From the IMG/VR virus record IMGVR_UViG_3300010392_000295: a stretch of DNA of 37,804 nucleotides. One strand, 5' to 3'. The position numbers and the translations under genes were made by a program. This stretch comes from a virus. Positions within the stretch are counted from its first letter, which is position 1, and every line of letters begins with the position of its first letter. Under the pieces are notes generated by a model. That model was not told where the DNA came from. It was given only the letters and a program-made list of their open reading frames with translations, and made no database searches. Shown here in pieces: positions 1 to 37,804 of the stretch.

Positions 1-127
1 GCAACGAAAAGTACAAAGATACGCTATCAGAAGCAAAGAAGTTTTTTGATGGCAGAAGCATTACAAAGCAAAGAGCAATTACAGCCGTTGTTTGCGCATT
101 TTGTATAGCGGTAGGCGCTAAAGCTCC
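1..127. repeat. 127-bp terminal direct repeat, identical to 37678..37804 (circular-assembly overlap or terminal redundancy)
   Basis: I compared the two ends base by base. gcaacgaaaagtacaaagatacgc...ggcgctaaagctcc occurs at both ends of the window. Confidence 0.95.
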
Positions 128-2161: not shown

Positions 2162-3700
2162 ATGGCTACAGAATTAAGCAAAGGCAAGCTAAGCGAGCCA
2201 GATTCAAATTATTGCGAACAGTCTTATTTGTGGAAGCAGGTAAGGGCATGTATTGCTGGTAAGTATGAAGTTGATAAGTTAAAGACGTGCCTTCCGCAGC
2301 CATACGACACAGGGCTTTATATTTATAGCGGCATGACTGATGAGCAAATCAATCACGCGAAACGATGCCAGCAAATAAATATTAACAAGTCGGCAGCTTA
2401 TTGGAATAGAGCGCGATTTTTTAACGCTACAGGTAGAACTTTTGAATCGCTTGGTGGTATGATTTGGTCGCAAGAGCCAGAGGTCGAGTTGGATGCAAGC
2501 GTTGCCTACCTTGAGAAAAACGCTAATGGCTCAGGTATGGGTTTGCGTGATGTTGCACAGTGCATTACTGATGAAAACGTTTCACTCGGTAGGCTTGGCG
2601 CTCTTGCTGATATGCCGAAAAATAAAAGAGCTTTAACTCGCAAGCAAATGGAGAGCGGAGAAAATGCAGCTCGCATTGTCATGTATAAAGCTGAAAGCAT
2701 TGTTTACTCACGCACAGATAAAAGTGGTAATCTTGTTGAAGTTAGACTTGTCGAGGTTCACCAAGAAGAAAAGCCAATGGGCGAAGGCGCTCTTACTTAC
2801 TGCATAAACACAGAAAACGTTATTTATACTAGGCAATTAGTGATGATTGACGGTGTTTATCACAACCGACTGTTTAATGATAAAGATGAGTTGATTTCGG
2901 ATGTAATTCCGCTTGCTAACCGTGTGGCGTTTAATTTTATCCCGTTTCAGTTTTTTGGTGCTGATAAGAACACGCCCGAATTCGGCAAGGTTCCGCTTTA
3001 CGACCTGGCTAGTCAAAATATAGGTCATTATGGGTATGATGCAGATAATAGGACTCATCTGCACTATTGGGCTTCCGGTATAACAAACGTATTTACAAGC
3101 ATGGATGCAATGCAATTTTACGAGCTTAACCCTAACGGATTGGATTGCAGTCCTGGCGGCTCAAATCAGCTTGGCTCTGATGATAGGGTTGAATACTTAC
3201 AAAGCACATCAGATGGCGCAGTTTCTAGCGAAATGGAAAAAGATGAGAGGCGTATGATTATGCTTGGCGCTCAATTGGTACAAGAAGCCAATGCTAATCA
3301 AACGTTGGGCGCTAAAGAAATGGAGTTTGGCGCAAGCGTATCGACACTAAAGCGCATCGCTCACAATTGCTCTAAAGGCATTGAGAATTTAATTAACTGG
3401 TGTGCGATGTTTATGGGTTCAAATGGTGAGTCAACTTACAAATTAAACACTGACTTTGTAACTGACAACATGACTCCAGAAATGATTAACGCTCACTTTG
3501 CACTTGTTCAAGGTGGTGTGCTGCCAGTTGAAACAATTTACGAGACAGCGCGAAAGGCTGAGTTAACAAAGCTTGATAATCAAGAAATTGCCGACTTAGC
3601 ACGCGAATCTGATTTGGGCATGAATGGCGAGTCAGAAGAAGTTGCGCGACTACGAGCTGAAAACGAAGCATTACGCGAGCAATTAAATGGCGCTGAATGA
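2162..3700 (+). CDS. portal protein
   Basis: 512-aa ORF between TerL and the Mu-F-like minor head gene. It has an acidic coiled-coil C-terminus and overlaps the next gene. Confidence 0.8.
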   Translation: MATELSKGKLSEPDSNYCEQSYLWKQVRACIAGKYEVDKLKTCLPQPYDTGLYIYSGMTDEQINHAKRCQQININKSAAYWNRARFFNATGRTFESLGGMIWSQEPEVELDASVAYLEKNANGSGMGLRDVAQCITDENVSLGRLGALADMPKNKRALTRKQMESGENAARIVMYKAESIVYSRTDKSGNLVEVRLVEVHQEEKPMGEGALTYCINTENVIYTRQLVMIDGVYHNRLFNDKDELISDVIPLANRVAFNFIPFQFFGADKNTPEFGKVPLYDLASQNIGHYGYDADNRTHLHYWASGITNVFTSMDAMQFYELNPNGLDCSPGGSNQLGSDDRVEYLQSTSDGAVSSEMEKDERRMIMLGAQLVQEANANQTLGAKEMEFGASVSTLKRIAHNCSKGIENLINWCAMFMGSNGESTYKLNTDFVTDNMTPEMINAHFALVQGGVLPVETIYETARKAELTKLDNQEIADLARESDLGMNGESEEVARLRAENEALREQLNGAE

Positions 3701-4805
3701 TGATTTAGTTGCGATTTACTCGCAGCATCAAATCTATTTACAGAAGGTTGCGGCTAAATACGGCAATGATGTCGTTCCGCATCTTGAGCGAATTCAATCT
3801 GGCGTTAATGACATATTCGAGCATTACCGCGGAATGAACTTAACACCGAAGCGCGAGGAAAGGATTAAGGCTCAAATTAACGAGCTTACGCGCTTGGAGT
3901 TGCAAGATTATATTAAGAATCTAAAGTCCGATACTAAAGGTGTTGGTGAATACGAAGCTCAATTTGCAGCGCGCACTCTTGATGACATTATTGAATCAGA
4001 TGATTTTAACTCTGCAGTGCCAACTGCTACACAAGTAAACACCCTGGCAATAGCATCACCAATAAAGCTAGGTGAAAACAATTTTATTACGTATAACACG
4101 ATGATGCGTAACTATTGGCAGAAATGGACTGATGAAATTGACGCTATTGTGCAGCAGGGATTTTTAGCTGGTGGCACAATACAAGATATTCAATCAAGAG
4201 TAATGCAAGCCATACAGTTAGAAGGTGAGGTTTCTAAAACAGCACTGTCACGAGCTAGACGCTCAGCAAGAACAATTGCTATAACTGGCATTAATCATTA
4301 CTCAAACCAAGCTACAGTGGCTTTTGTTGGCGCTAACGATGATGCGCTAGTTGGATATGAATTTGTCGCCGTGCTTGACTCTAGAACCAGTCAGCAATGC
4401 AGAGGCTTTGATGGTAGAACATTTAAAGCTGACGACCCAAGACTAGGCGCAGTAACTCCACCATTGCACCCTAATTGCCGTAGTAGACTTGTTTATGAGG
4501 TGGCAGACAAGTACAGATTTGATGACGAAGATTTACAACGCTCATCAAATTTTAGGGTTGATGGTAAACTAGACCCGAAATCGGTTAAGAGTGGTCAGCG
4601 ATACTATGATTACATGGCTAAGCTATCAGCTAAAGACCAGGACGCGATACTTGGGCCAACTTTAGGCAAGGCGTTTAGAAAACTGAATGACCCAGACAAG
4701 TTTGCCAAGCTAACAGTTGATTCGCTTGGTAATCCGCTAACTATCACAGAATTAAAGAAGCGCGACAACGAATTAAGTCGCATACTTAAACAACAGAAAG
4801 GCTGA
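3687..4805 (+). CDS. minor head / head morphogenesis protein (Phage_Mu_F, SPP1 gp7-like)
   Basis: The motif TPPLHPNCRSRL matches the conserved PPxHxNCRC signature of the Mu F / SPP1 gp7 family. It sits right after the portal. Confidence 0.85.
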   Translation: MALNDDLVAIYSQHQIYLQKVAAKYGNDVVPHLERIQSGVNDIFEHYRGMNLTPKREERIKAQINELTRLELQDYIKNLKSDTKGVGEYEAQFAARTLDDIIESDDFNSAVPTATQVNTLAIASPIKLGENNFITYNTMMRNYWQKWTDEIDAIVQQGFLAGGTIQDIQSRVMQAIQLEGEVSKTALSRARRSARTIAITGINHYSNQATVAFVGANDDALVGYEFVAVLDSRTSQQCRGFDGRTFKADDPRLGAVTPPLHPNCRSRLVYEVADKYRFDDEDLQRSSNFRVDGKLDPKSVKSGQRYYDYMAKLSAKDQDAILGPTLGKAFRKLNDPDKFAKLTVDSLGNPLTITELKKRDNELSRILKQQKG

Positions 4806-4834
4806 GCCTTTTTAAATACCTAGAGGGTAGTACT

Positions 4835-5479
4835 ATGACATTTGATTTATCTAAAATTGAAGGTTTAACAGAAGAACAGCAAGCAGCAATCAAGGCTATG
4901 CACGAAACCGAAACGCAAGGATTGGTAAGCAAAACGCAAGAGCTGTTAAGCGAAACCAAAACAGCAAAGGCAACAGCCAGTGAACAAGCGCAAGCATTAG
5001 AGCAAGCTCGCCAAGCAGCAGTAAAGGCAGAAGAAGAAAAACTGCTAGCAGAAGGTAAATATAAAGAAGCTCAAGAGCTGCGAGAGCAAGAGCGCGCACA
5101 GCTTGTTGCAGAAGCTGAAAGCAAGGCGAAAATGGCGCAGGAAAACCTTGAAAAGTATCACAAAAGCACAGCTTTAAATGGTGCTTTATCACTGATTCAC
5201 GACGACTTTAAAGACGTGTCAAGCGCTTTATTGGATTCAATGATTAAAATTGATTATAATGAACAAGGCGAAGCATTAACAAAATTTATGAAAGATGGTA
5301 ATGTTGTTGCTAATAGCGTTGATGAGTTCAAAAGCTGGGCTGCTGAACAAGATTCATTTAAGCGCATTATGAATGGTGTTAACTCTAGCGGAGCTGGTTC
5401 TTCTAACGCCAACGGTAGCGCTGGTGCTACAAATGATTCAGCTTATGAGCTTCGCTTGAAACAAGCAGGCTTAATTTAA
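4835..5479 (+). CDS. scaffolding protein
   Basis: Coiled-coil sequence rich in A, E, K and Q, lying between the minor head protein and the major capsid gene. RBS-like gagggtag lies upstream. Confidence 0.7.
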   Translation: MTFDLSKIEGLTEEQQAAIKAMHETETQGLVSKTQELLSETKTAKATASEQAQALEQARQAAVKAEEEKLLAEGKYKEAQELREQERAQLVAEAESKAKMAQENLEKYHKSTALNGALSLIHDDFKDVSSALLDSMIKIDYNEQGEALTKFMKDGNVVANSVDEFKSWAAEQDSFKRIMNGVNSSGAGSSNANGSAGATNDSAYELRLKQAGLI

Positions 5480-6489: not shown

Positions 6490-6642
6490 ATGGATAAAGT
6501 AAAGTATTTACCTCATCCATGCTCTACTGAGACTAAAAAGGAATGGAATGCAAAAGGCTATCGAGTTTTAGATGAGCGTTTTAATCCAGAACCAGTAGAG
6601 CAATACAAACCAAAACGTAAACAAAAAAAAGCCGCTGAATAG
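6490..6642 (+). CDS. small lysine-rich hypothetical protein (50 aa)
   Basis: RBS gaggtga precedes the ATG at 6490. Product is MDKVKYLPHPCSTETKKEWNAKGYRVLDERFNPEPVEQYKPKRKQKKAAE. The stop lies inside the terminator hairpin. Confidence 0.5.
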   Translation: MDKVKYLPHPCSTETKKEWNAKGYRVLDERFNPEPVEQYKPKRKQKKAAE

Positions 6643-6651
6643 TGGCTTTTT
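6629..6651 (+). terminator. rho-independent terminator after the capsid gene block
   Basis: aagccgc (6629..6635) pairs with gtggctt (6642..6648) and is followed by a T-run. Confidence 0.75.
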
Positions 6652-6671
6652 ACTTATGCGGGCATTAGAAC

Positions 6672-7322
6672 ATGAGTAATACAAGAAACGGGATATTAGC
6701 TCAAATTGTTATCGCGCTAGGCGGTACAGTGAGAAACCCTGACAACAGAAATATGTTGCTAGAAGATTGGCGTGACGCTGTTGGTGGGGGTGGCCCAGCA
6801 ACTAGAGAGGTGTTTAACTTCAACGCTGTTAATCAGTGGATTTCGCTCGGTGGAAACATACTCGTACCAGCAGGACAATCTATAGAAATGATGGTTAGAG
6901 TAAATAACACGGCAACAGGTTCAAATCAGTACCTAATGGATTCGGCACTTGATACAGACCCGAACAGAACTGCTGTTTTCGTTACATCGACTGGTACTTA
7001 CTTGGATGGAGATTTTGACTCTGAGCTTGACGGTCAGCCGTTTGCAAATGGAAGTCAATGGCCTGATAGTGAATTTCATCATTTAAAGTTAACTGCTGTC
7101 ACAAATACAAATGTAGGAACTTTGGCTGCTAGAGCTAACGGTAGCGGAGCCAACTTCTTGGGCGGTGTAATTTACAACATTAAGTTTAATGGCGGCTCAG
7201 TTAATAACTACCCAGTCGATGATGGATGGAGTAACAATCCAATTATCAGGAATACTGGAAGCGGAGCTGATGCCACACTAATTAATGGGTTGGAATCTGG
7301 ATGGGAGACAATACCAGTATGA
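6672..7322 (+). CDS. hypothetical virion-associated protein with a LamG / concanavalin-like lectin domain (tentative)
   Basis: 216 aa. The N-terminus carries two copies of an RN-x-LL-type motif (TRNGILAQIVIALGGT, NRNMLLEDWRDAVGGG). The rest resembles a jelly-roll/lectin domain (beta-rich, ...HHLKLTAV...LGGVIYNIKFNGG). The fold call is by eye only. Confidence 0.4.
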   Translation: MSNTRNGILAQIVIALGGTVRNPDNRNMLLEDWRDAVGGGGPATREVFNFNAVNQWISLGGNILVPAGQSIEMMVRVNNTATGSNQYLMDSALDTDPNRTAVFVTSTGTYLDGDFDSELDGQPFANGSQWPDSEFHHLKLTAVTNTNVGTLAARANGSGANFLGGVIYNIKFNGGSVNNYPVDDGWSNNPIIRNTGSGADATLINGLESGWETIPV

Positions 7323-7925: not shown

Positions 7926-9179
7926 ATGTCTATTAGAAATAAATTACTTGAAGAAATATTGTCAGCAATACAATCAGGCTCTGGGTTGGTTGGTAGAGTT
8001 AATGTGACTAGTGCTGCTGACTTATCTGGTACGCTGGATTCAACCAAAGAATACTTTATTGATGGCGTTATTGATATGGGTAGCCAATCAATAGAGGTGC
8101 CTGCTGGCGGCTTGTATTTATCTGGCTACAATTTCGATACATCAAAATTAATTTCAAGCGCAGATAATTACACAATGTTTACATCGCCTATTGGTGGTAG
8201 CGGGAACGTTATCGGCAAAGATTACGCTGTTGAGGTAAGCGGAGCATCATCAAAGGTGTATGATTTAACGTCAGCTACAGGGTTTGATGCTTTTGAGTTT
8301 TCAAGGATAAATTACAATAACTGCGAGTCTCTAGGTGAAATTAACGGATACCGACAAGGCTTTGAGTCTGGTACTGGTAGATTTGGAGGTAAGCCTGAGT
8401 TGGCACTATCTGGTACTTGGGTTGGTGGTTATTTCATAGATGCTTCAATTGTTAGAAGTCTTGCTGATGGTGCTTACTCATTGTTTAAGGCTGGCGCTGG
8501 ATTTAGCATGGCTTCGCGCTTTAGGACAAATATGAACTTGGACTTACCAGCTAGCGCGTCATTCTTTGATTTTGCCCCGGTAAACTTTCCAAACCCTTCA
8601 ACAGTACAGGTTGATGGCGCGATAGTAACAAGGCAAGGTGTGCAAGATGCAACAGATACAAACTACACGCCAAATATAACCGCTGGAAATTTAGCATGCT
8701 CTTGGTCTAACAATATCGGGATGCCAAATACCTTTGAAGGCGGCGCTATTGGCATTGCCGCAGAAGCCGCAACAATAATCAACGCAGTTGATACATTTGA
8801 GGATGTCAACGCTGTAGCGTGGAATGTAACCGACTTGCAGCACTTTGACAGCCCCGTAGGCGGGCAGTTAAGGCATATAGGCATAAATCCAAGAGAATAT
8901 AAGGTTGTTGCGTCAATGGCGGCATCATCAACAGCAAACAACGTTCTAACTTTGAGGGTGTTAAAGTGGGATGACTCAGCCTCATCATTTGTGACGGTTT
9001 TAGATCAAGTTAGGCCAGTTAATAATTTCACCGGCGCAAGGGATGTGGCTTTTTTTAATGTGAACATAAATGCGACTCTAGACCAAAATGACTACATAAA
9101 ACTACAGGTAGCAAACAACACAGCCATAAACAACGTTACATTTGAAACTGACGGATATTACTTGGTGGAGGAAAGATAA
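7926..9179 (+). CDS. hypothetical fibre/spike-like protein, possibly beta-helix (depolymerase-like)
   Basis: 417 aa. The N-terminus MSIRNKLLEEILSAIQSGSG shares the motif of the two upstream ORFs. The body is a long repetitive beta-type sequence rich in G, S, N and T. The fold call is tentative. Confidence 0.4.
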   Translation: MSIRNKLLEEILSAIQSGSGLVGRVNVTSAADLSGTLDSTKEYFIDGVIDMGSQSIEVPAGGLYLSGYNFDTSKLISSADNYTMFTSPIGGSGNVIGKDYAVEVSGASSKVYDLTSATGFDAFEFSRINYNNCESLGEINGYRQGFESGTGRFGGKPELALSGTWVGGYFIDASIVRSLADGAYSLFKAGAGFSMASRFRTNMNLDLPASASFFDFAPVNFPNPSTVQVDGAIVTRQGVQDATDTNYTPNITAGNLACSWSNNIGMPNTFEGGAIGIAAEAATIINAVDTFEDVNAVAWNVTDLQHFDSPVGGQLRHIGINPREYKVVASMAASSTANNVLTLRVLKWDDSASSFVTVLDQVRPVNNFTGARDVAFFNVNINATLDQNDYIKLQVANNTAINNVTFETDGYYLVEER

Positions 9180-9198
9180 GGCGCATTAAACGCCTTTT
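9178..9198. terminator. hairpin between convergent genes (bidirectional terminator candidate)
   Basis: aaggcg (9178..9183) pairs with cgcctt (9191..9196), with a 7-nt loop and a T-run on the + strand. Confidence 0.6.
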
Positions 9199-9299
9199 AC
9201 CACCATAAAAACAGAAACCCAAAAAGCAAAGCACATACCAAAAGCGATAAGCCAAATTATCGCTTTTTCAACCTTACAAAATGGTTTTAAATCTTTCAT
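9186..9299 (-). CDS. small membrane peptide (37 aa)
   Basis: Product MKDLKPFCKVEKAIIWLIAFGMCFAFWVSVFMVVKGV has one TM segment. Its ATG overlaps the upstream gene's stop (ATGA). Confidence 0.45.
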   Translation of the reverse strand: MKDLKPFCKVEKAIIWLIAFGMCFAFWVSVFMVVKGV

Positions 9300-9475
9300 T
9301 TAACCGCCTTAAATTTATCAAAATCAGCCTTACTAACTCGATCGCCGTTAACGCGATAAGTCACCTGTTTTTCTTTTGCGTTGTTACGCGCTGCAATATT
9401 CCAGATAGTATCTGTTTTAATACCTGTGTTACCGCCCACGAAGTTTGAGCCGCCTGCTATACCGTTGTTAATCAT
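9296..9475 (-). CDS. small hypothetical protein (59 aa)
   Basis: Product begins MINNGIAGGSNFVGGNTGIKTDTIWNIAARNN... It is preceded by the conserved GGTGATTTATG initiation region. Confidence 0.5.
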   Translation of the reverse strand: MINNGIAGGSNFVGGNTGIKTDTIWNIAARNNAKEKQVTYRVNGDRVSKADFDKFKAVK

Positions 9476-9485
9476 AAATCACCTT

Positions 9486-9707
9486 TTAATCTTCGTTAGA
9501 ATTTTCAAGTAAATATTTATATTCATTAAACCTATATTTATTTCCTTCATGCTTTATGTAGCAGGAATCAAAGATAAAATATTCAGTTTCTTTTCCAGTT
9601 ACAGACTCATAATTGCTGCAAATCCTGTATTCGATACAGCTAATTACAAGAGATCCAATCAAAATAATTAAAGCCAAATCAATCAGAAAATCTCTGTAAA
9701 GATTCAT
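9486..9707 (-). CDS. small membrane-anchored protein (73 aa)
   Basis: N-terminal TM segment FLIDLALIILIGSLVISCI. Preceded by GGTGATTTATG. Its start overlaps the stop of the upstream gene. Confidence 0.6.
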   Translation of the reverse strand: MNLYRDFLIDLALIILIGSLVISCIEYRICSNYESVTGKETEYFIFDSCYIKHEGNKYRFNEYKYLLENSNED

Positions 9708-10372
9708 AAATCACCATAAAAAAGTTTAGTTAAAAGTTCGTTTATTTTTTCTTTGCAGTCAGCAGCAACATAAGCATCAGCGGCACGAGCAGCATCAGCA
9801 GCATCAGCAGCATAAGCAGCAGCATAAGCAGCAGCATAAGCAGCATCAGCAGCATCAGCAGCATCAGCGGCACGAGCAGCAGCATAAGCATCAGCAGCAT
9901 CAGCAGCATCAGCGGCACGAGCAGCAGCATAAGCAGCATAAGCATCAGCAGCATCAGCGGCACGAGCAGCAGCATAAGCAGCATAAGCAGCAGCATAAGC
10001 AGCAGCGTCAGCAGCAGCATCAGCAGCATCAGCGGCACGAGCAGCATCAGCATCAGCGGCACGAGCAGCATCAGCAGCAGTAACAGTAGATGTGTGTGTA
10101 TTGTTTAGAAAGTCAACAATTAAATCATACTTATCTGTGTAAGCCTTTATCGACTCAATGTTAATAAGTGCAACATCGCAAGCGAACCTTGCAATTTTAT
10201 CTTTTGGCAGTTTTTTGCCAGCCAACCATAGCAAGTCGGACGGGGTGCTTTTCCCTCCAATAAGCGATAACACTTCAACAGGCTCATCCGTGTTATTCGT
10301 TTGCTCGATAAATCTATCGAACCCTTCTTTGCAAGCTTTTAACTCAATCAACTCTTGTTTGCTAATTTTCAT
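9704..10372 (-). CDS. Ala/Asp/Tyr/Arg repeat protein with a Cys-containing N-terminal domain (reminiscent of Imm5-like AAxAA repeat proteins)
   Basis: 222 aa. The N-terminal roughly 95 aa are globular (ELKACKEGFDRF..., LLWLAGKKL, RFACDVALINIE). About 110 aa then consist almost only of A, D, R and Y (AARAADAADAAYAAAYAA...). Preceded by GGTGATTTATG. Confidence 0.75.
   Translation of the reverse strand: MKISKQELIELKACKEGFDRFIEQTNNTDEPVEVLSLIGGKSTPSDLLWLAGKKLPKDKIARFACDVALINIESIKAYTDKYDLIVDFLNNTHTSTVTAADAARAADADAARAADAADAAADAAAYAAAYAAYAAARAADAADAYAAYAAARAADAADAADAYAAARAADAADAADAAYAAAYAAAYAADAADAARAADAYVAADCKEKINELLTKLFYGDL
9761..10080. repeat. about 320 bp of imperfect tandem repeats with 3/6/9-nt periodicity (gcagca / gcatca / gcataa / gcggcacga units)
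   Basis: Seen directly in the sequence. The higher-order unit gcatcagcggcacgagcagc recurs six times with variable numbers of short units between copies. Confidence 0.9.
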
Positions 10373-10375
10373 AAA

Positions 10376-10516
10376 TCACCACATCAAATTAATAATAATA
10401 TCTAAAACTTTTGGCCCAGCTAAAACATACCCAACAGCAAAGCCAATCACCAAACACAATAAAGCATAAGTTGCGTATTCAAAAGCAAAATCAATCATCT
10501 TCATTAGATTTTCCAT
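10376..10516 (-). CDS. small membrane peptide (46 aa)
   Basis: Product MENLMKMIDFAFEYATYALLCLVIGFAVGYVLAGPKVLDIIINLMW has one TM segment and overlaps the upstream ORF. Confidence 0.45.
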   Translation of the reverse strand: MENLMKMIDFAFEYATYALLCLVIGFAVGYVLAGPKVLDIIINLMW

Positions 10517-10643
10517 CGCTTTCCAATCCTTCAAAGTATTTCATTTTTAATTCAAAGCCGGTTTTATACCCTTCTTCTTCCGCTCGCTTTGTCGCGTGAT
10601 ACGCTATTAAGTAATAACGTTCATCTAAATCTAAATCACTCAT
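10491..10643 (-). CDS. small acidic hypothetical protein (50 aa)
   Basis: Product is MSDLDLDERYYLIAYHATKRAEEEGYKTGFELKMKYFEGLESDGKSNEDD. It overlaps ORFs on both sides. Confidence 0.45.
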   Translation of the reverse strand: MSDLDLDERYYLIAYHATKRAEEEGYKTGFELKMKYFEGLESDGKSNEDD

Positions 10644-10968: not shown

Positions 10969-11642
10969 ATGGGTTCAGTAAAGAAGGGAATGATTTTCAA
11001 GACTTCAAACTGCGGTGAAATAGAGGTTTTAACGGATGTAGTCAATGGGCATTCTTTGGTTAAATTCATAGAAACAGGATTTGAAAAAAAGCAAGCGTAA
11101 GAAGCATAAAAAGCGGAATGATAAAAGACAGAATGAAGCCAGTTAGGTATGGAGTTGGATTTATAGGTGTTGGAATGTTTAAATCTTATGAAAATGGAGT
11201 AATGACAAAAGAGTATAAAGCTTGGTCTGCAATGTTAAAAAGGTGTTATTGCAAAAAGACCCATGAAAAACAACCAACATACAAAGAGTGTGAAGTTTGT
11301 GATGACTGGCTTGATTTTCAGTTGTTTGCAGATTGGTACAGCAAATCATCAAGAGGGAGAGTGGATCTGGAGGTTGACAAAGACATAAGCGTTAAAAACA
11401 ACAAGGTTTACTCTCCAGAAACTTGCAAGTTAGTAACAAAGAAAGAAAACTTATCAGCTAGGGGAGTTAATTCGGATCCGGTATTTTTTGAAAATAAAGA
11501 TGGCAGAATAGAAGAAGTAAGAAATGTTAACAACTTTTGTAGAGATGAAGGGTTAACGCAAAGTGCAATGTCAAGAGTCGCTAGAGGTAAAATGAAATCG
11601 CACAAAGGATGGTTTTTGTGTGATTTCCAAAGTGTAAAATAA
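10969..11642 (+). pseudogene. homing-endonuclease-like gene split by a frame change at an A7 run (paralog of 30592..31245)
   Basis: The 10969..11100 product MGSVKKGMIFKTSNCGEIEVLTDVVNGHSLVKFIETGFEKK aligns with the N-terminus of the intact paralog. The -1 frame from 11085 onward (KKASVRSIKSGMIKDRMKPVRYGVGFIGVG...) continues colinearly. The junction is A_AAA_AAG at 11085..11091. Confidence 0.75.
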
Positions 11643-30591: not shown

Positions 30592-31245
30592 ATGTCAAAA
30601 GTTTTAATTAATGAAATTTACAGATCAAACTCAAGCGGCGAGTTCATTGTTTTATGCAAACTTCCAGGCTATAGGTCTATAGTTCAATTTTTAAAAACAG
30701 GTTTTACAAAAAACGTTAGAACAAACAAAGTTTTAACTGGTGAAATATCTGACCCATTAAGAAGATCCGTTTATGGCATTGGTTTTTTCGGGATTGGCAA
30801 ACACGTATCAAGTAGGAACGGTGTTGAACTAAATAAATACACAGCATGGAGCAATATGCTTGAAAGGTGCTATTCAGAATCATTCCATAAAAACAGACCC
30901 AAATACAGCGATTGCTTTGTTTGTGATGAATGGCTTAATTATCAAAATTTCGCTGACTGGTATGAAGAAAATTATATTGAAGGTATGCACGTTGAAAAAG
31001 ATATACTTATAGATGGTAATAGGTGTTACAGTCCAGGTACATGTTCATTTAAAAGCTGTCAAGAAAATAACGAAAAGGCATTTTCTAAAAATTACAAAGT
31101 TATATCACCACACGGCGAAGTTTTTAAAGTTTACAACATGAATAAATTTTGCAGAGAAAACGGGTTAACAAGCAGTGCAATGTACAACGTTGCAAATGGA
31201 AAGCAAAGAAATCACAAAGGGTGGTCACTAGACCAAAACATTTAA
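30592..31245 (+). CDS. homing-endonuclease-like protein (intact paralog of 10969..11642)
   Basis: YTAWSNMLERCY...CFVCDEWLNYQNFADWY and C-terminal GLTSSAMYNVANGKQRNHKGW (an HTH of the kind seen in free-standing phage endonucleases). It is colinear with the split copy. The exact nuclease family is not identified. Confidence 0.55.
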   Translation: MSKVLINEIYRSNSSGEFIVLCKLPGYRSIVQFLKTGFTKNVRTNKVLTGEISDPLRRSVYGIGFFGIGKHVSSRNGVELNKYTAWSNMLERCYSESFHKNRPKYSDCFVCDEWLNYQNFADWYEENYIEGMHVEKDILIDGNRCYSPGTCSFKSCQENNEKAFSKNYKVISPHGEVFKVYNMNKFCRENGLTSSAMYNVANGKQRNHKGWSLDQNI

Positions 31246-37439: not shown

Positions 37440-37804
37440 ATGTCGAGCCAGAACGAAATAACAGAACTTAGAAGTGATATTAAAGAGCAAACTAAAGAGA
37501 TTGCTAACTTAACTACAAGCATTACTCAGTTAGTTGAGAGCTATAAATACCACAAAGAAGTAACAGACAGCCACACGCAAGAGATTAAAGTTTTGCATGA
37601 AGCTAATAACAATACTGATGCAAAGTTTAATGAATTCTTACTTGAATATAAGCCAGTTTTAGACCAGGCAAAAGCAAGCAACGAAAAGTACAAAGATACG
37701 CTATCAGAAGCAAAGAAGTTTTTTGATGGCAGAAGCATTACAAAGCAAAGAGCAATTACAGCCGTTGTTTGCGCATTTTGTATAGCGGTAGGCGCTAAAG
37801 CTCC
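37440..37804 (+). CDS. 5' part of the junction-spanning ORF (129 aa in total when joined to 128..152): coiled-coil protein with a C-terminal TM anchor
   Basis: ATG at 37440. Product begins MSSQNEITELRSDIKEQTKEIANLTTSITQLVESYKYHKE... and runs off the window end in frame with 1..152. Confidence 0.6.
   Translation, partial: MSSQNEITELRSDIKEQTKEIANLTTSITQLVESYKYHKEVTDSHTQEIKVLHEANNNTDAKFNEFLLEYKPVLDQAKASNEKYKDTLSEAKKFFDGRSITKQRAITAVVCAFCIAVGAKA
37678..37804. repeat. second copy of the 127-bp terminal repeat
   Basis: Identical to 1..127. Confidence 0.95.

Follow-up and report, generated by a model that had tools for sequence, protein, structure and literature searches.

A phage-borne protein with a length-variable alanine-rich tract and its proposed kinship with Imm5-like proteins

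The tract gene and its repeat DNA

The viral DNA analysed here, IMG/VR record IMGVR_UViG_3300010392_000295 (37,804 nucleotides, hereafter the window), encodes on its minus strand a protein of 222 residues in which a conserved N-terminal domain (the N-domain) and a conserved C-terminal helix are joined by a long tract of alanine, aspartate, tyrosine and arginine. An original prediction, made from the DNA letters, had described the tract as the product of slippage-prone tandem repeats and had likened the protein to Imm5-like proteins. We show that the tract and the length hypervariability of its family are real, and, by comparison of sequence profiles, that the protein is related to Imm5-like proteins at the level of a superfamily. 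The features of the gene, here called the tract gene, are the following:

9704..10372, minus strand: tract gene, coding sequence (CDS) of 222 aa, from the listing of open reading frames (ORFs) with translation and the match to PHROG 21347
10376..10380, minus strand: Shine-Dalgarno-like GGTGA, 3 nt before the ATG and overlapping the stop codon of the upstream ORF, read from the sequence
10082..10372, minus strand: N-terminal globular all-alpha domain, aa 1-97, from AlphaFold2, conservation and hhalign
9758..10081, minus strand: Ala/Asp/Tyr/Arg tract, aa 98-205, an interrupted (GCT)n triplet minisatellite, from composition, codon use and the Tandem Repeats Finder array
9774..10069, plus strand: span of the six copies of GCATCAGCGGCACGAGCAGC, three successive spacings being 45 bp
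10049..10079, minus strand: upstream copy of the identical 31-bp direct repeat TGCTGCTGATGCTGCTCGTGCCGCTGATGCT, a deletion endpoint, from prefix/suffix comparison with contig L004 and blastn
9773..9803, minus strand: downstream copy of TGCTGCTGATGCTGCTCGTGCCGCTGATGCT, the other deletion endpoint
9902..9916, minus strand: predicted hairpin turn at the midpoint of the tract, aa 153-157, from DSSP on the AlphaFold2 model
9704..9757, minus strand: C-terminal helix, aa 206-222 (CKEKINELLTKLFYGDL), and stop codon, with the motif (V/I)NxLLxxLF and a predicted local confidence (pLDDT) of 88-94
9742..10071, minus strand: L/M-rich ORF of 109 aa in the +1 frame, judged to arise from the repeat and not to be a gene

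The tract gene is a real gene. It is preceded by the Shine-Dalgarno-like site and its start and stop codons overlap those of its neighbours in an operon, its own stop overlapping the next ATG (ATGA); the initiation context GGTGATTTATG is common to the tract gene and the next two genes. Its product matches PHROG 21347 (E 4.6e-58, 197.5 bits; residues 1-142 against positions 1-150 of the 186 in the profile), and the N-domain alone retrieves 122 cluster representatives at E<=1e-3 from 1.84 billion proteins. The translation contains the N-terminal motifs that the original prediction had quoted.

Apart from one Thr and one Val, the 108 residues of the tract are the four named in the prediction (72 Ala, 18 Asp, 10 Tyr and 6 Arg). 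The prediction had put the length at about 110. Tandem Repeats Finder reports a single array at 9759..10079 (period 9, 36 copies, score 272). Within it the 20-mer GCATCAGCGGCACGAGCAGC, which stands for AARAAD on the minus strand, is found at 9774, 9861, 9906, 9951, 10026 and 10050; these are the six copies that had been claimed, all exact, and none is expected from 100 shuffles. Codon use in the tract is close to uniform. GCT accounts for 66 of the 72 alanine codons, compared with 45% in the large genes of the genome; all ten tyrosines are encoded by TAT (46% genome-wide) and all six arginines by CGT (10% genome-wide). Such uniformity implies recent amplification at the DNA level, and the array is thus a recently amplified, interrupted (GCT)n triplet minisatellite of the CTG/CAG class. 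In the tracts of four distant phages, the GCT share of alanine codons is 66/72, 69/69, 40/42 and 10/13, and about 90% of third codon positions are T, suggesting that the tracts are continually regenerated from a few units.

The L/M-rich ORF had been called spurious, which is consistent with what we found: since GCT GAT G reads CTG ATG in the +1 frame, strings of NNT-G codons leave that frame open automatically. The +1 frame and the in-phase antisense frame are also open in the tracts of three unrelated homologues, those of phage 9NA, Shewanella phage 1/4 and Vibrio phage 2.044.O. The antisense frame is S/I-rich, and three of six frames are open across the tract. As RNA, the tract folds no better than shuffled sequence (z = -0.98); its plus strand, when folded as DNA, has a stability slightly above that of shuffled sequence (z = -2.07). 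In the record of Vibrio phage 2.044.O (MG592661.1), the homologous repeat (2824-2897 of locus L003) is annotated as a 'CRISPR spacer 1/2' non-coding RNA inside the CDS, evidently a false call on a tandem repeat.

The protein family, its length variation and its predicted structure

A tblastn search with the N-domain gave matches in 16 phage records, with 34-71% identity overall and 54-71% in 14 of these records. The records include Salmonella phages 9NA, Solent and Sergei, Escherichia phage PDP46, several Vibrio phages and the Shewanella sea-ice phages 1/4 and 1/40, and the family is thus found in both enteric and sea-ice phages. The close homologues all have the N-domain, an Ala-rich tract and a C-terminal (V/I)NxLLxxLF helix, so that the tract-less homologues of which the prediction had been wary did not appear among them, and no full-length member seen here is without a middle region. 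In diverged members, the middle is a non-repetitive helical segment of 50-80 aa and of similar length, which indicates that the low-complexity tract derives from a real structural element by amplification and degeneration. When 185,579 species-representative genomes were scanned with the family profile, in a search that used only two short peptide patterns, no relative came up. The close family looks phage-restricted apart from the record P0010, which is labelled Salmonella enterica in NCBI and lies on a phage-sized contig of 53 kb.

Among phages, the gene occupies varying accessory positions, no conserved neighbour gene was found in 14 related phage loci, and a search of 16 phage loci gave no conserved neighbour or partner. 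Tandem or near-tandem paralogues are present in three uncultured phages, L014 (2 copies, 3419-4498), L015 (3 copies, 3435-4513 and 6544-6963) and L019 (2 copies, 3950-5221); these paralogues have similar N-domains and unrelated or divergent middles. Two side observations concern the range of the family. In L020, L021 and L022 (about 4001-4590 in each), the tract is built of the four-residue units SAAW, SAAR and SAAE instead of AAY, AAD and AAR. In P0005, P0011, P0012, P0021, P0049 and L011 (2048-2704), a conserved N-terminal extension of about 47 aa (MNIVNSLMKDLLISGGWSESCVQMYQHDY...) precedes the MKITKQELK start; these gene calls come from 9NA-like and Sashavirus-like contigs, PDP46_0013 is annotated likewise, and the extension reflects either the choice of another start further upstream or the fusion of an upstream ORF.

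That the tract varies in length came from the comparison of near-identical genes. Phages 9NA, Solent and Sergei have identical N-domains and C-terminal tails, while the proteins measure 202, 183 and 149 aa respectively; between Solent and Sergei, the flanks are 98.8-99.6% identical. As these are cultured isolates, and as the genome of 9NA was sequenced by Sanger reads of ~660 bp (PMC4153490), the general length hypervariability of the gene family is settled. In the 9NA-like group as a whole, 23 out of 23 tracts differ (20-83 aa) whereas the N-domains average 95% identity, and identical N-domains go with unrelated tracts. Over 83 close relatives, the tract measures 11-109 aa with a median of 55, which places the 108 aa of the window among the longest. 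The comparison of repeat number in related phages that had been proposed thus shows varying lengths, and the natural length variants support the past expansion and contraction read from the array. For the phage of the window itself, a MEGAHIT contig in ENA, with 99.98-100% identity over 20 kb, is shorter by exactly 276 bp (92 codons), the missing stretch lying between the two 31-bp repeats, and encodes a form of 130 aa (P0001). Either the deletion is real and was mediated by the repeats, or the array collapsed during assembly.

The composition of the tract appears to be under constraint. Family-wide, the non-alanine residues recur every 3.4-3.5 residues, a signature of amphipathic or coiled-coil helices, and they are led by Asp (10%), Tyr (9%) and Arg (6%). 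Tyr and Arg are common though two mutations away from GCT, whereas Pro (0.1%), Gly (1%) and Ser (1.3%) are rare though one mutation away. Both the composition and the 3.4-3.5 period are kept in relatives whose N-domains are only ~20% identical. The residue bias, the period and the deep conservation of composition together argue for protein-level constraint towards a helical surface decorated with Asp, Tyr and Arg. Charge behaves differently. The prediction of a strongly acidic protein is borne out for the window, where the tract has a pI of 4.05 and a net charge of -12 and the whole protein a pI of 4.41, but not for the family, in which the pI ranges from 4.05 to 9.02 (median 4.9), the median net charge per residue is 0.037 and some tracts are net basic.

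An AlphaFold2 model of the full-length protein, built with an alignment of 67 sequences, has a mean pLDDT of 85 (91-98 for residues 1-70, 85-87 for residues 71-90 and ~70-88 for the tract) and two long helices, 99-152 and 158-219. The natural 130-aa form is modelled with a pLDDT of 90.4 and a predicted TM-score (pTM) of 0.79, with values of 93-98 over residues 1-90. In these predictions, a compact helical base would carry an antiparallel Ala-rich hairpin, which would return the C-terminal helix to the base; a two-helix hairpin is thus predicted instead of the alanine-packed solenoid that had been imagined. Conserved residues of the N-domain include L8, A13-C14, R20-F21, Q24-T25, W49-L50-A51, F63 and A68-L69. 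In the C-terminal helix, L214 and F218 are at least 90% conserved, and the motif is kept even in homologues with a non-repetitive middle. Foldseek, which the prediction had recommended, found nothing significant in the PDB for the full-length model and nothing below E 2 for the compact 130-aa model; against BFVD, the compact model matched only its own family and, weakly, an 'Imm-5-like' phage protein. A PDB sequence search and a search of PDB sequences with the family HMM gave no matches. The whole-protein matches met in Pfam, NCBIfam, PADLOC and PDB sequences (Plasmodium_HRP, DnaX tau) were set aside as compositional noise only.

Relation to Imm5-like proteins and genomic setting

The comparison with Imm5-like proteins in the original prediction was partly right. 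A Pfam search with the tract protein gives no match even at E<=10. The cut-off of Imm5_like (PF21805, 25 bits) is not reached by it, and 66 out of 67 close relatives fall short of the Pfam Imm5_like models, the remaining one attaining E 0.002, which is below the cut-off. DUF6931 (PF22011, cut-off 27 bits) is matched by three of the 67 close relatives and not by the tract protein; these three are likely chimeras such as P0086 (37.6 bits). For Imm5 (PF14423), we found neither an HMM match nor a toxin linkage among the window ORFs scanned against PHROGs and PADLOC. The hallmark segment 'FExKYPxDxRPRxAIE' is not in the tract protein, where IESIKAYTDKYDLIVDFL, without an RPR motif, is aligned in its place. 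As there is no Pfam match and the hallmark segment is absent, we place the protein outside the Pfam families, in a phage-specific sister branch of the superfamily.

The weaker matches of the whole-protein search do carry Imm5_like, Imm5 or DUF6931 domains. We compared N-domain profiles with every Ala tract removed first, to exclude compositional attraction. In hhalign, the N-domains of the family and the N-termini of proteins bearing Imm5_like, Imm5 or DUF6931 align over 72 columns with a probability of 98.9% and an E of 1.9e-17, the aligned region being mostly N-terminal to the Pfam domain. In the natural chimeras P0086, P0160, P0169 and P0172, residues 1-68 of this family (~60-70% identity) are followed by a middle of the Imm5_like/DUF6931 type and then by the C-terminal helix common to both. 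Tract composition is A.60, D.10, Y.09, R.06 in the close set and A.64, Y.11, D.10, R.04 in the distant set. On these sequence comparisons, the tract protein is related to Imm5-like proteins at the superfamily level, which is the part of the earlier comparison that stands.

In overall architecture, the protein is like the phage-borne members of Imm5_like. These share the N-terminal 'LxxxxxCxxG...W' region, in which Ala or Pro precedes Cys, the 'FAxxCA' helix, the A/Y/D/R Ala-rich tract and the C-terminal amphipathic helix; tract composition and the 3.5-residue periodicity are common to both. The hallmark segment of Imm5_like is replaced in our family by 'IExIKPYTDKYDLIVxFL'. In contrast, classical bacterial Imm5_like proteins have no N-terminal Cys/Trp region, and their Ala-rich part is non-repetitive. 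Two bona fide Imm5_like proteins lie on phage-like contigs of 44-47 kb, in early or accessory regions amid small ORFs, and no toxin is annotated in their flanks. A further protein of the phage type was seen at 4854-5501 of L027, from the chromosome OZ245025.1 of a Candidatus Poriferihabitaceae metagenome-assembled genome, with a PCxxGW N-domain, the 'RPRKAIE' core of Imm5_like and a long tract of AAY and AAD units; a prophage is a possible setting for it.

Imm5 (PF14423) was reportedly defined by Zhang et al. in 2012. It is a predicted immunity protein linked to DYW-deaminase and CdiA-CT toxins, and the suggestion has been made that it serves as a versatile scaffold for binding toxins (PMC3239186, PMC3482391). 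Literature searches on Imm5-like proteins, PF21805, DUF6931, 9NA gp10 and alanine-rich anti-defence proteins found nothing relevant apart from the papers that first defined Imm5.

The window around the tract gene contributes the following further features:

9186..10643, minus strand: leftward operon of six ORFs (50, 52, 222, 73, 59 and 37 aa) with overlapping start and stop codons (ATGA)
9186-9299 (37 aa), 9486-9707 (73 aa) and 10376-10534 (52 aa), minus strand: small operon ORFs with one hydrophobic transmembrane-like segment each, read from the sequence
10775-10747 and 10670-10642, minus strand: promoter-like sites, consensus matches only
9178-9196, minus strand: terminator-like site or hairpin, consensus match only, which also lies at the end of the converging 417-aa gene

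The promoter-like and terminator-like matches around the operon are no more numerous than in shuffled sequence. The operon forms a leftward island between the head module and the HNH and head-tail adaptor genes. On the plus strand up to 9179 lie terminase, portal, MuF-like and capsid genes; beyond the operon follow an HNH endonuclease, the head-tail adaptor, tail genes, an exonuclease, an O-like replication initiator, DnaB, a second HNH, NinG and NinB. The first and last 127 bases of the window (1-127 and 37678-37804) are identical, which makes it a circularly assembled and probably complete phage genome of ~37.7 kb. The window equals the JGI contig Ga0118733_100005304. A nucleotide search of 50,697 phage records with it gave no match, and it thus has no close relative at the DNA level among those sequenced phages.

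The 417-aa gene that closes the head module (7926-9179, plus strand) converges on the operon and matches only PHROG 16509, of unassigned function (E 1e-173). The two HNH endonuclease genes (11118-11642 and 30592-31245, both plus strand) are paralogous, with 42% identity over 171 aa and PHROG 2081 for both; they are possibly mobile homing endonucleases, one of which adjoins the leftward island between the head and connector genes. No match to a toxin-annotated family was obtained among the window ORFs, of which 30 were scanned against PHROGs and five against PADLOC, in scans that did not include the Pfam toxin-domain models. The five largest island ORFs, the tract gene included, gave no convincing PADLOC match (one was marginal, E 0.016). 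A reading of the operon as a lysis cassette gained no support from the island, where no endolysin-like match was obtained, but no endolysin or holin was recognised in any other scanned window ORF either.

Possible roles and comparison with known systems

We propose, with a probability of roughly 0.45, that the protein is a soluble all-alpha phage accessory protein of a phage-restricted sister branch of the Imm5-like/DUF6931 group, in which a conserved base carries a hairpin varied by slippage and the whole acts as a binder or inhibitor of another protein. Residues 1-92 (the N-terminal domain) and about 207-219 (the C-terminal helix), both conserved, would make up the base, from which two Ala-rich helices of ~50-60 residues each would project as the arms of the hairpin. 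Slippage in replication, or recombination between internal direct repeats, would add or remove blocks of codons, always in frame because the repeat unit is 3 nt. The packing of alanine on alanine is expected to be independent of register, so that the turn could re-form at a new midpoint while the C-terminal helix still docks on the base; arm length and surface pattern could then change much faster than the rest of the gene. Judging from distant homology and from the behaviour of the gene in genomes, the protein may be an orphan immunity-like factor or an anti-defence factor that binds and blocks a protein of the host or of a competitor, with the base as scaffold and the variable hairpin as the element of specificity or steric hindrance. 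Neutralisation of a toxin we infer from distant homology only. The arrays of paralogues and the variable accessory positions are hints of conflict biology, and the tandem paralogues in L014, L015 and L019 recall the poly-immunity loci of immunity proteins (PMC3482391).

Several observations weigh against this proposal. The protein has no Pfam, PADLOC or PDB match and no characterised homologue, and the geometry of the hairpin is an AlphaFold2 prediction on low-complexity sequence. Next to the tract gene there is no toxin gene, either in the window or at 14 related loci in phages; in the few bacterial Imm5_like loci sampled, the neighbours were housekeeping genes and not toxins, which makes the 'immunity' label weak even for the Pfam family. 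The period of the window tract peaks at 3.0 and not 3.5, reflecting its AAD units, and looks like a raw recent expansion. The 92-aa deletion variant, together with the range of 11-109 aa, suggests that arm length may matter little, and the deletion variant may itself come from a collapse in short-read assembly.

The main rival explanation, which we regard as rather unlikely, is a neutral low-complexity expansion: function would reside in the N-domain and the C-terminal helix, and the tract would be a near-neutral slippage insertion without specificity. The deletion variant in an otherwise identical genome, the wide span of tract lengths and the completely different tracts behind identical N-domains are what such an expansion would leave, as are the extreme codon homogeneity, which implies recent amplification, and the non-helical period of the window tract. 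It accounts poorly for an A/D/Y/R composition and a 3.4-3.5 period conserved down to ~20% N-domain identity, for the depletion of Pro, Gly and Ser at one mutation from GCT, and for a middle region in every full-length member seen here, which diverged members keep as a helical segment of 50-80 aa. At the opposite pole, the triplet minisatellite would be a contingency device, in which in-frame slippage re-sizes and re-patterns the hairpin and so produces binder variants that track polymorphic host toxins or defence proteins, with the tandem paralogues as 'poly-immunity' arrays; this would make it a protein-arm analogue of diversity-generating retroelements and phase-variable loci, and we consider it quite improbable. 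The original prediction had suggested mimicry of nucleic acid as one possibility; acidic Ala/Asp helices would then imitate DNA, as Ocr and ArdA do, and so sequester DNA-binding defence enzymes such as those of restriction-modification and BREX. The acidity of the window protein (18 Asp against 6 Arg in the tract), its elongated predicted shape and the link made in the literature between Imm5 and nucleic-acid-targeting toxins (PMC3482391) would suit it. Acidity is, however, not conserved and mimicry is thus not a property of the family; Asp is no more typical of the tract than Tyr and Arg are, and no similarity of sequence or fold to known DNA mimics was found in Pfam, PDB or BFVD, all of which makes this role very unlikely.

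Two further explanations, to each of which we attach next to no probability, would make the protein tract incidental or its length an error. In one, the repeat would act as DNA or RNA (iterons, a packaging or recombination site, mRNA structure) or through alternative-frame ORFs. The three open frames, the GCT bias common to distant phages and the slightly stable DNA fold could be read in this way, but any string of NNT-G codons opens the other frames automatically, shuffled RNA folds as well as the tract does, diverged homologues are without any repeat DNA, and in more than 100 clusters the Ala frame is joined to the conserved N-domain and C-terminal helix, with length changes all in frame. 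In the other, the 320-bp repeat would have been mis-assembled and the true gene would encode the 130-aa form or one of another length, as the shorter MEGAHIT contig of the same phage might suggest. Yet the exact 222-aa product is found on five contigs, and tracts of 46-99 aa occur in cultured, independently sequenced isolates, the Sanger-sequenced 9NA among them (PMC4153490). Moreover, endpoints in the 31-bp repeats fit a real deletion, or a collapse to the short form, and not an inflation to the long one. A decoy resembling an SsrA tag, with its AANDENYALAA-like composition, is an idea suggested solely by composition. Ice binding was also considered and is made unlikely by the presence of the family in enteric phages.

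If the variable arm of the proposed binder is functional, it would offer phages a simple route to diversify a binding protein, for which an in-frame triplet repeat suffices and no reverse transcriptase is needed, and the Imm5-like/DUF6931 group would gain a testable role in phage-host conflict. As the family includes gp10 of the tractable Salmonella phage 9NA, the question can be addressed directly by experiment. If the tract is neutral, it would still be a natural example of CTG/CAG-type repeat instability in phage genomes, and the locus a source of errors of annotation and assembly: the homologous tract bears the CRISPR-spacer label in one GenBank record, and one metagenome assembly has a version shorter by 276 bp.

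Among close known systems is PHROG 21347 itself, represented by 9NA gp10, Sergei gp17 and S14_229 of Shewanella phage 1/4. Identity in the N-domain is 55-75%, and all have the tract and the C-terminal motif, the member in the window differing by its tract of 108 aa against a family median of 55. As a long Ala-rich two-helix hairpin, the model resembles Maxi, the hyperactive type I antifreeze protein of winter flounder (PDB: 4KE2), which is the top Foldseek match of the full-length model in the PDB; this match falls short of significance (E 4.7, TM ~0.3) and reflects composition. In Maxi, Thr/Ile recur with a period of 11 residues, whereas the period is 3.0 in the window tract and 3.4-3.5 in the family. 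With Ocr and ArdA, the window protein (pI 4.4) has in common that it is a small, helical, acidic accessory protein of a phage or plasmid, but neither the searches of sequence and fold nor the variable acidity of its family bring it closer to them. Repeats of the (GCT)n = (CTG)n class are unstable in E. coli. Like simple-sequence contingency loci, the tract gene is polymorphic in repeat number between near-identical genomes and has deletion endpoints in direct repeats; it differs from them in that a 3-nt unit gives no ON/OFF switching of the reading frame, and what varies is the length and surface of the arm.

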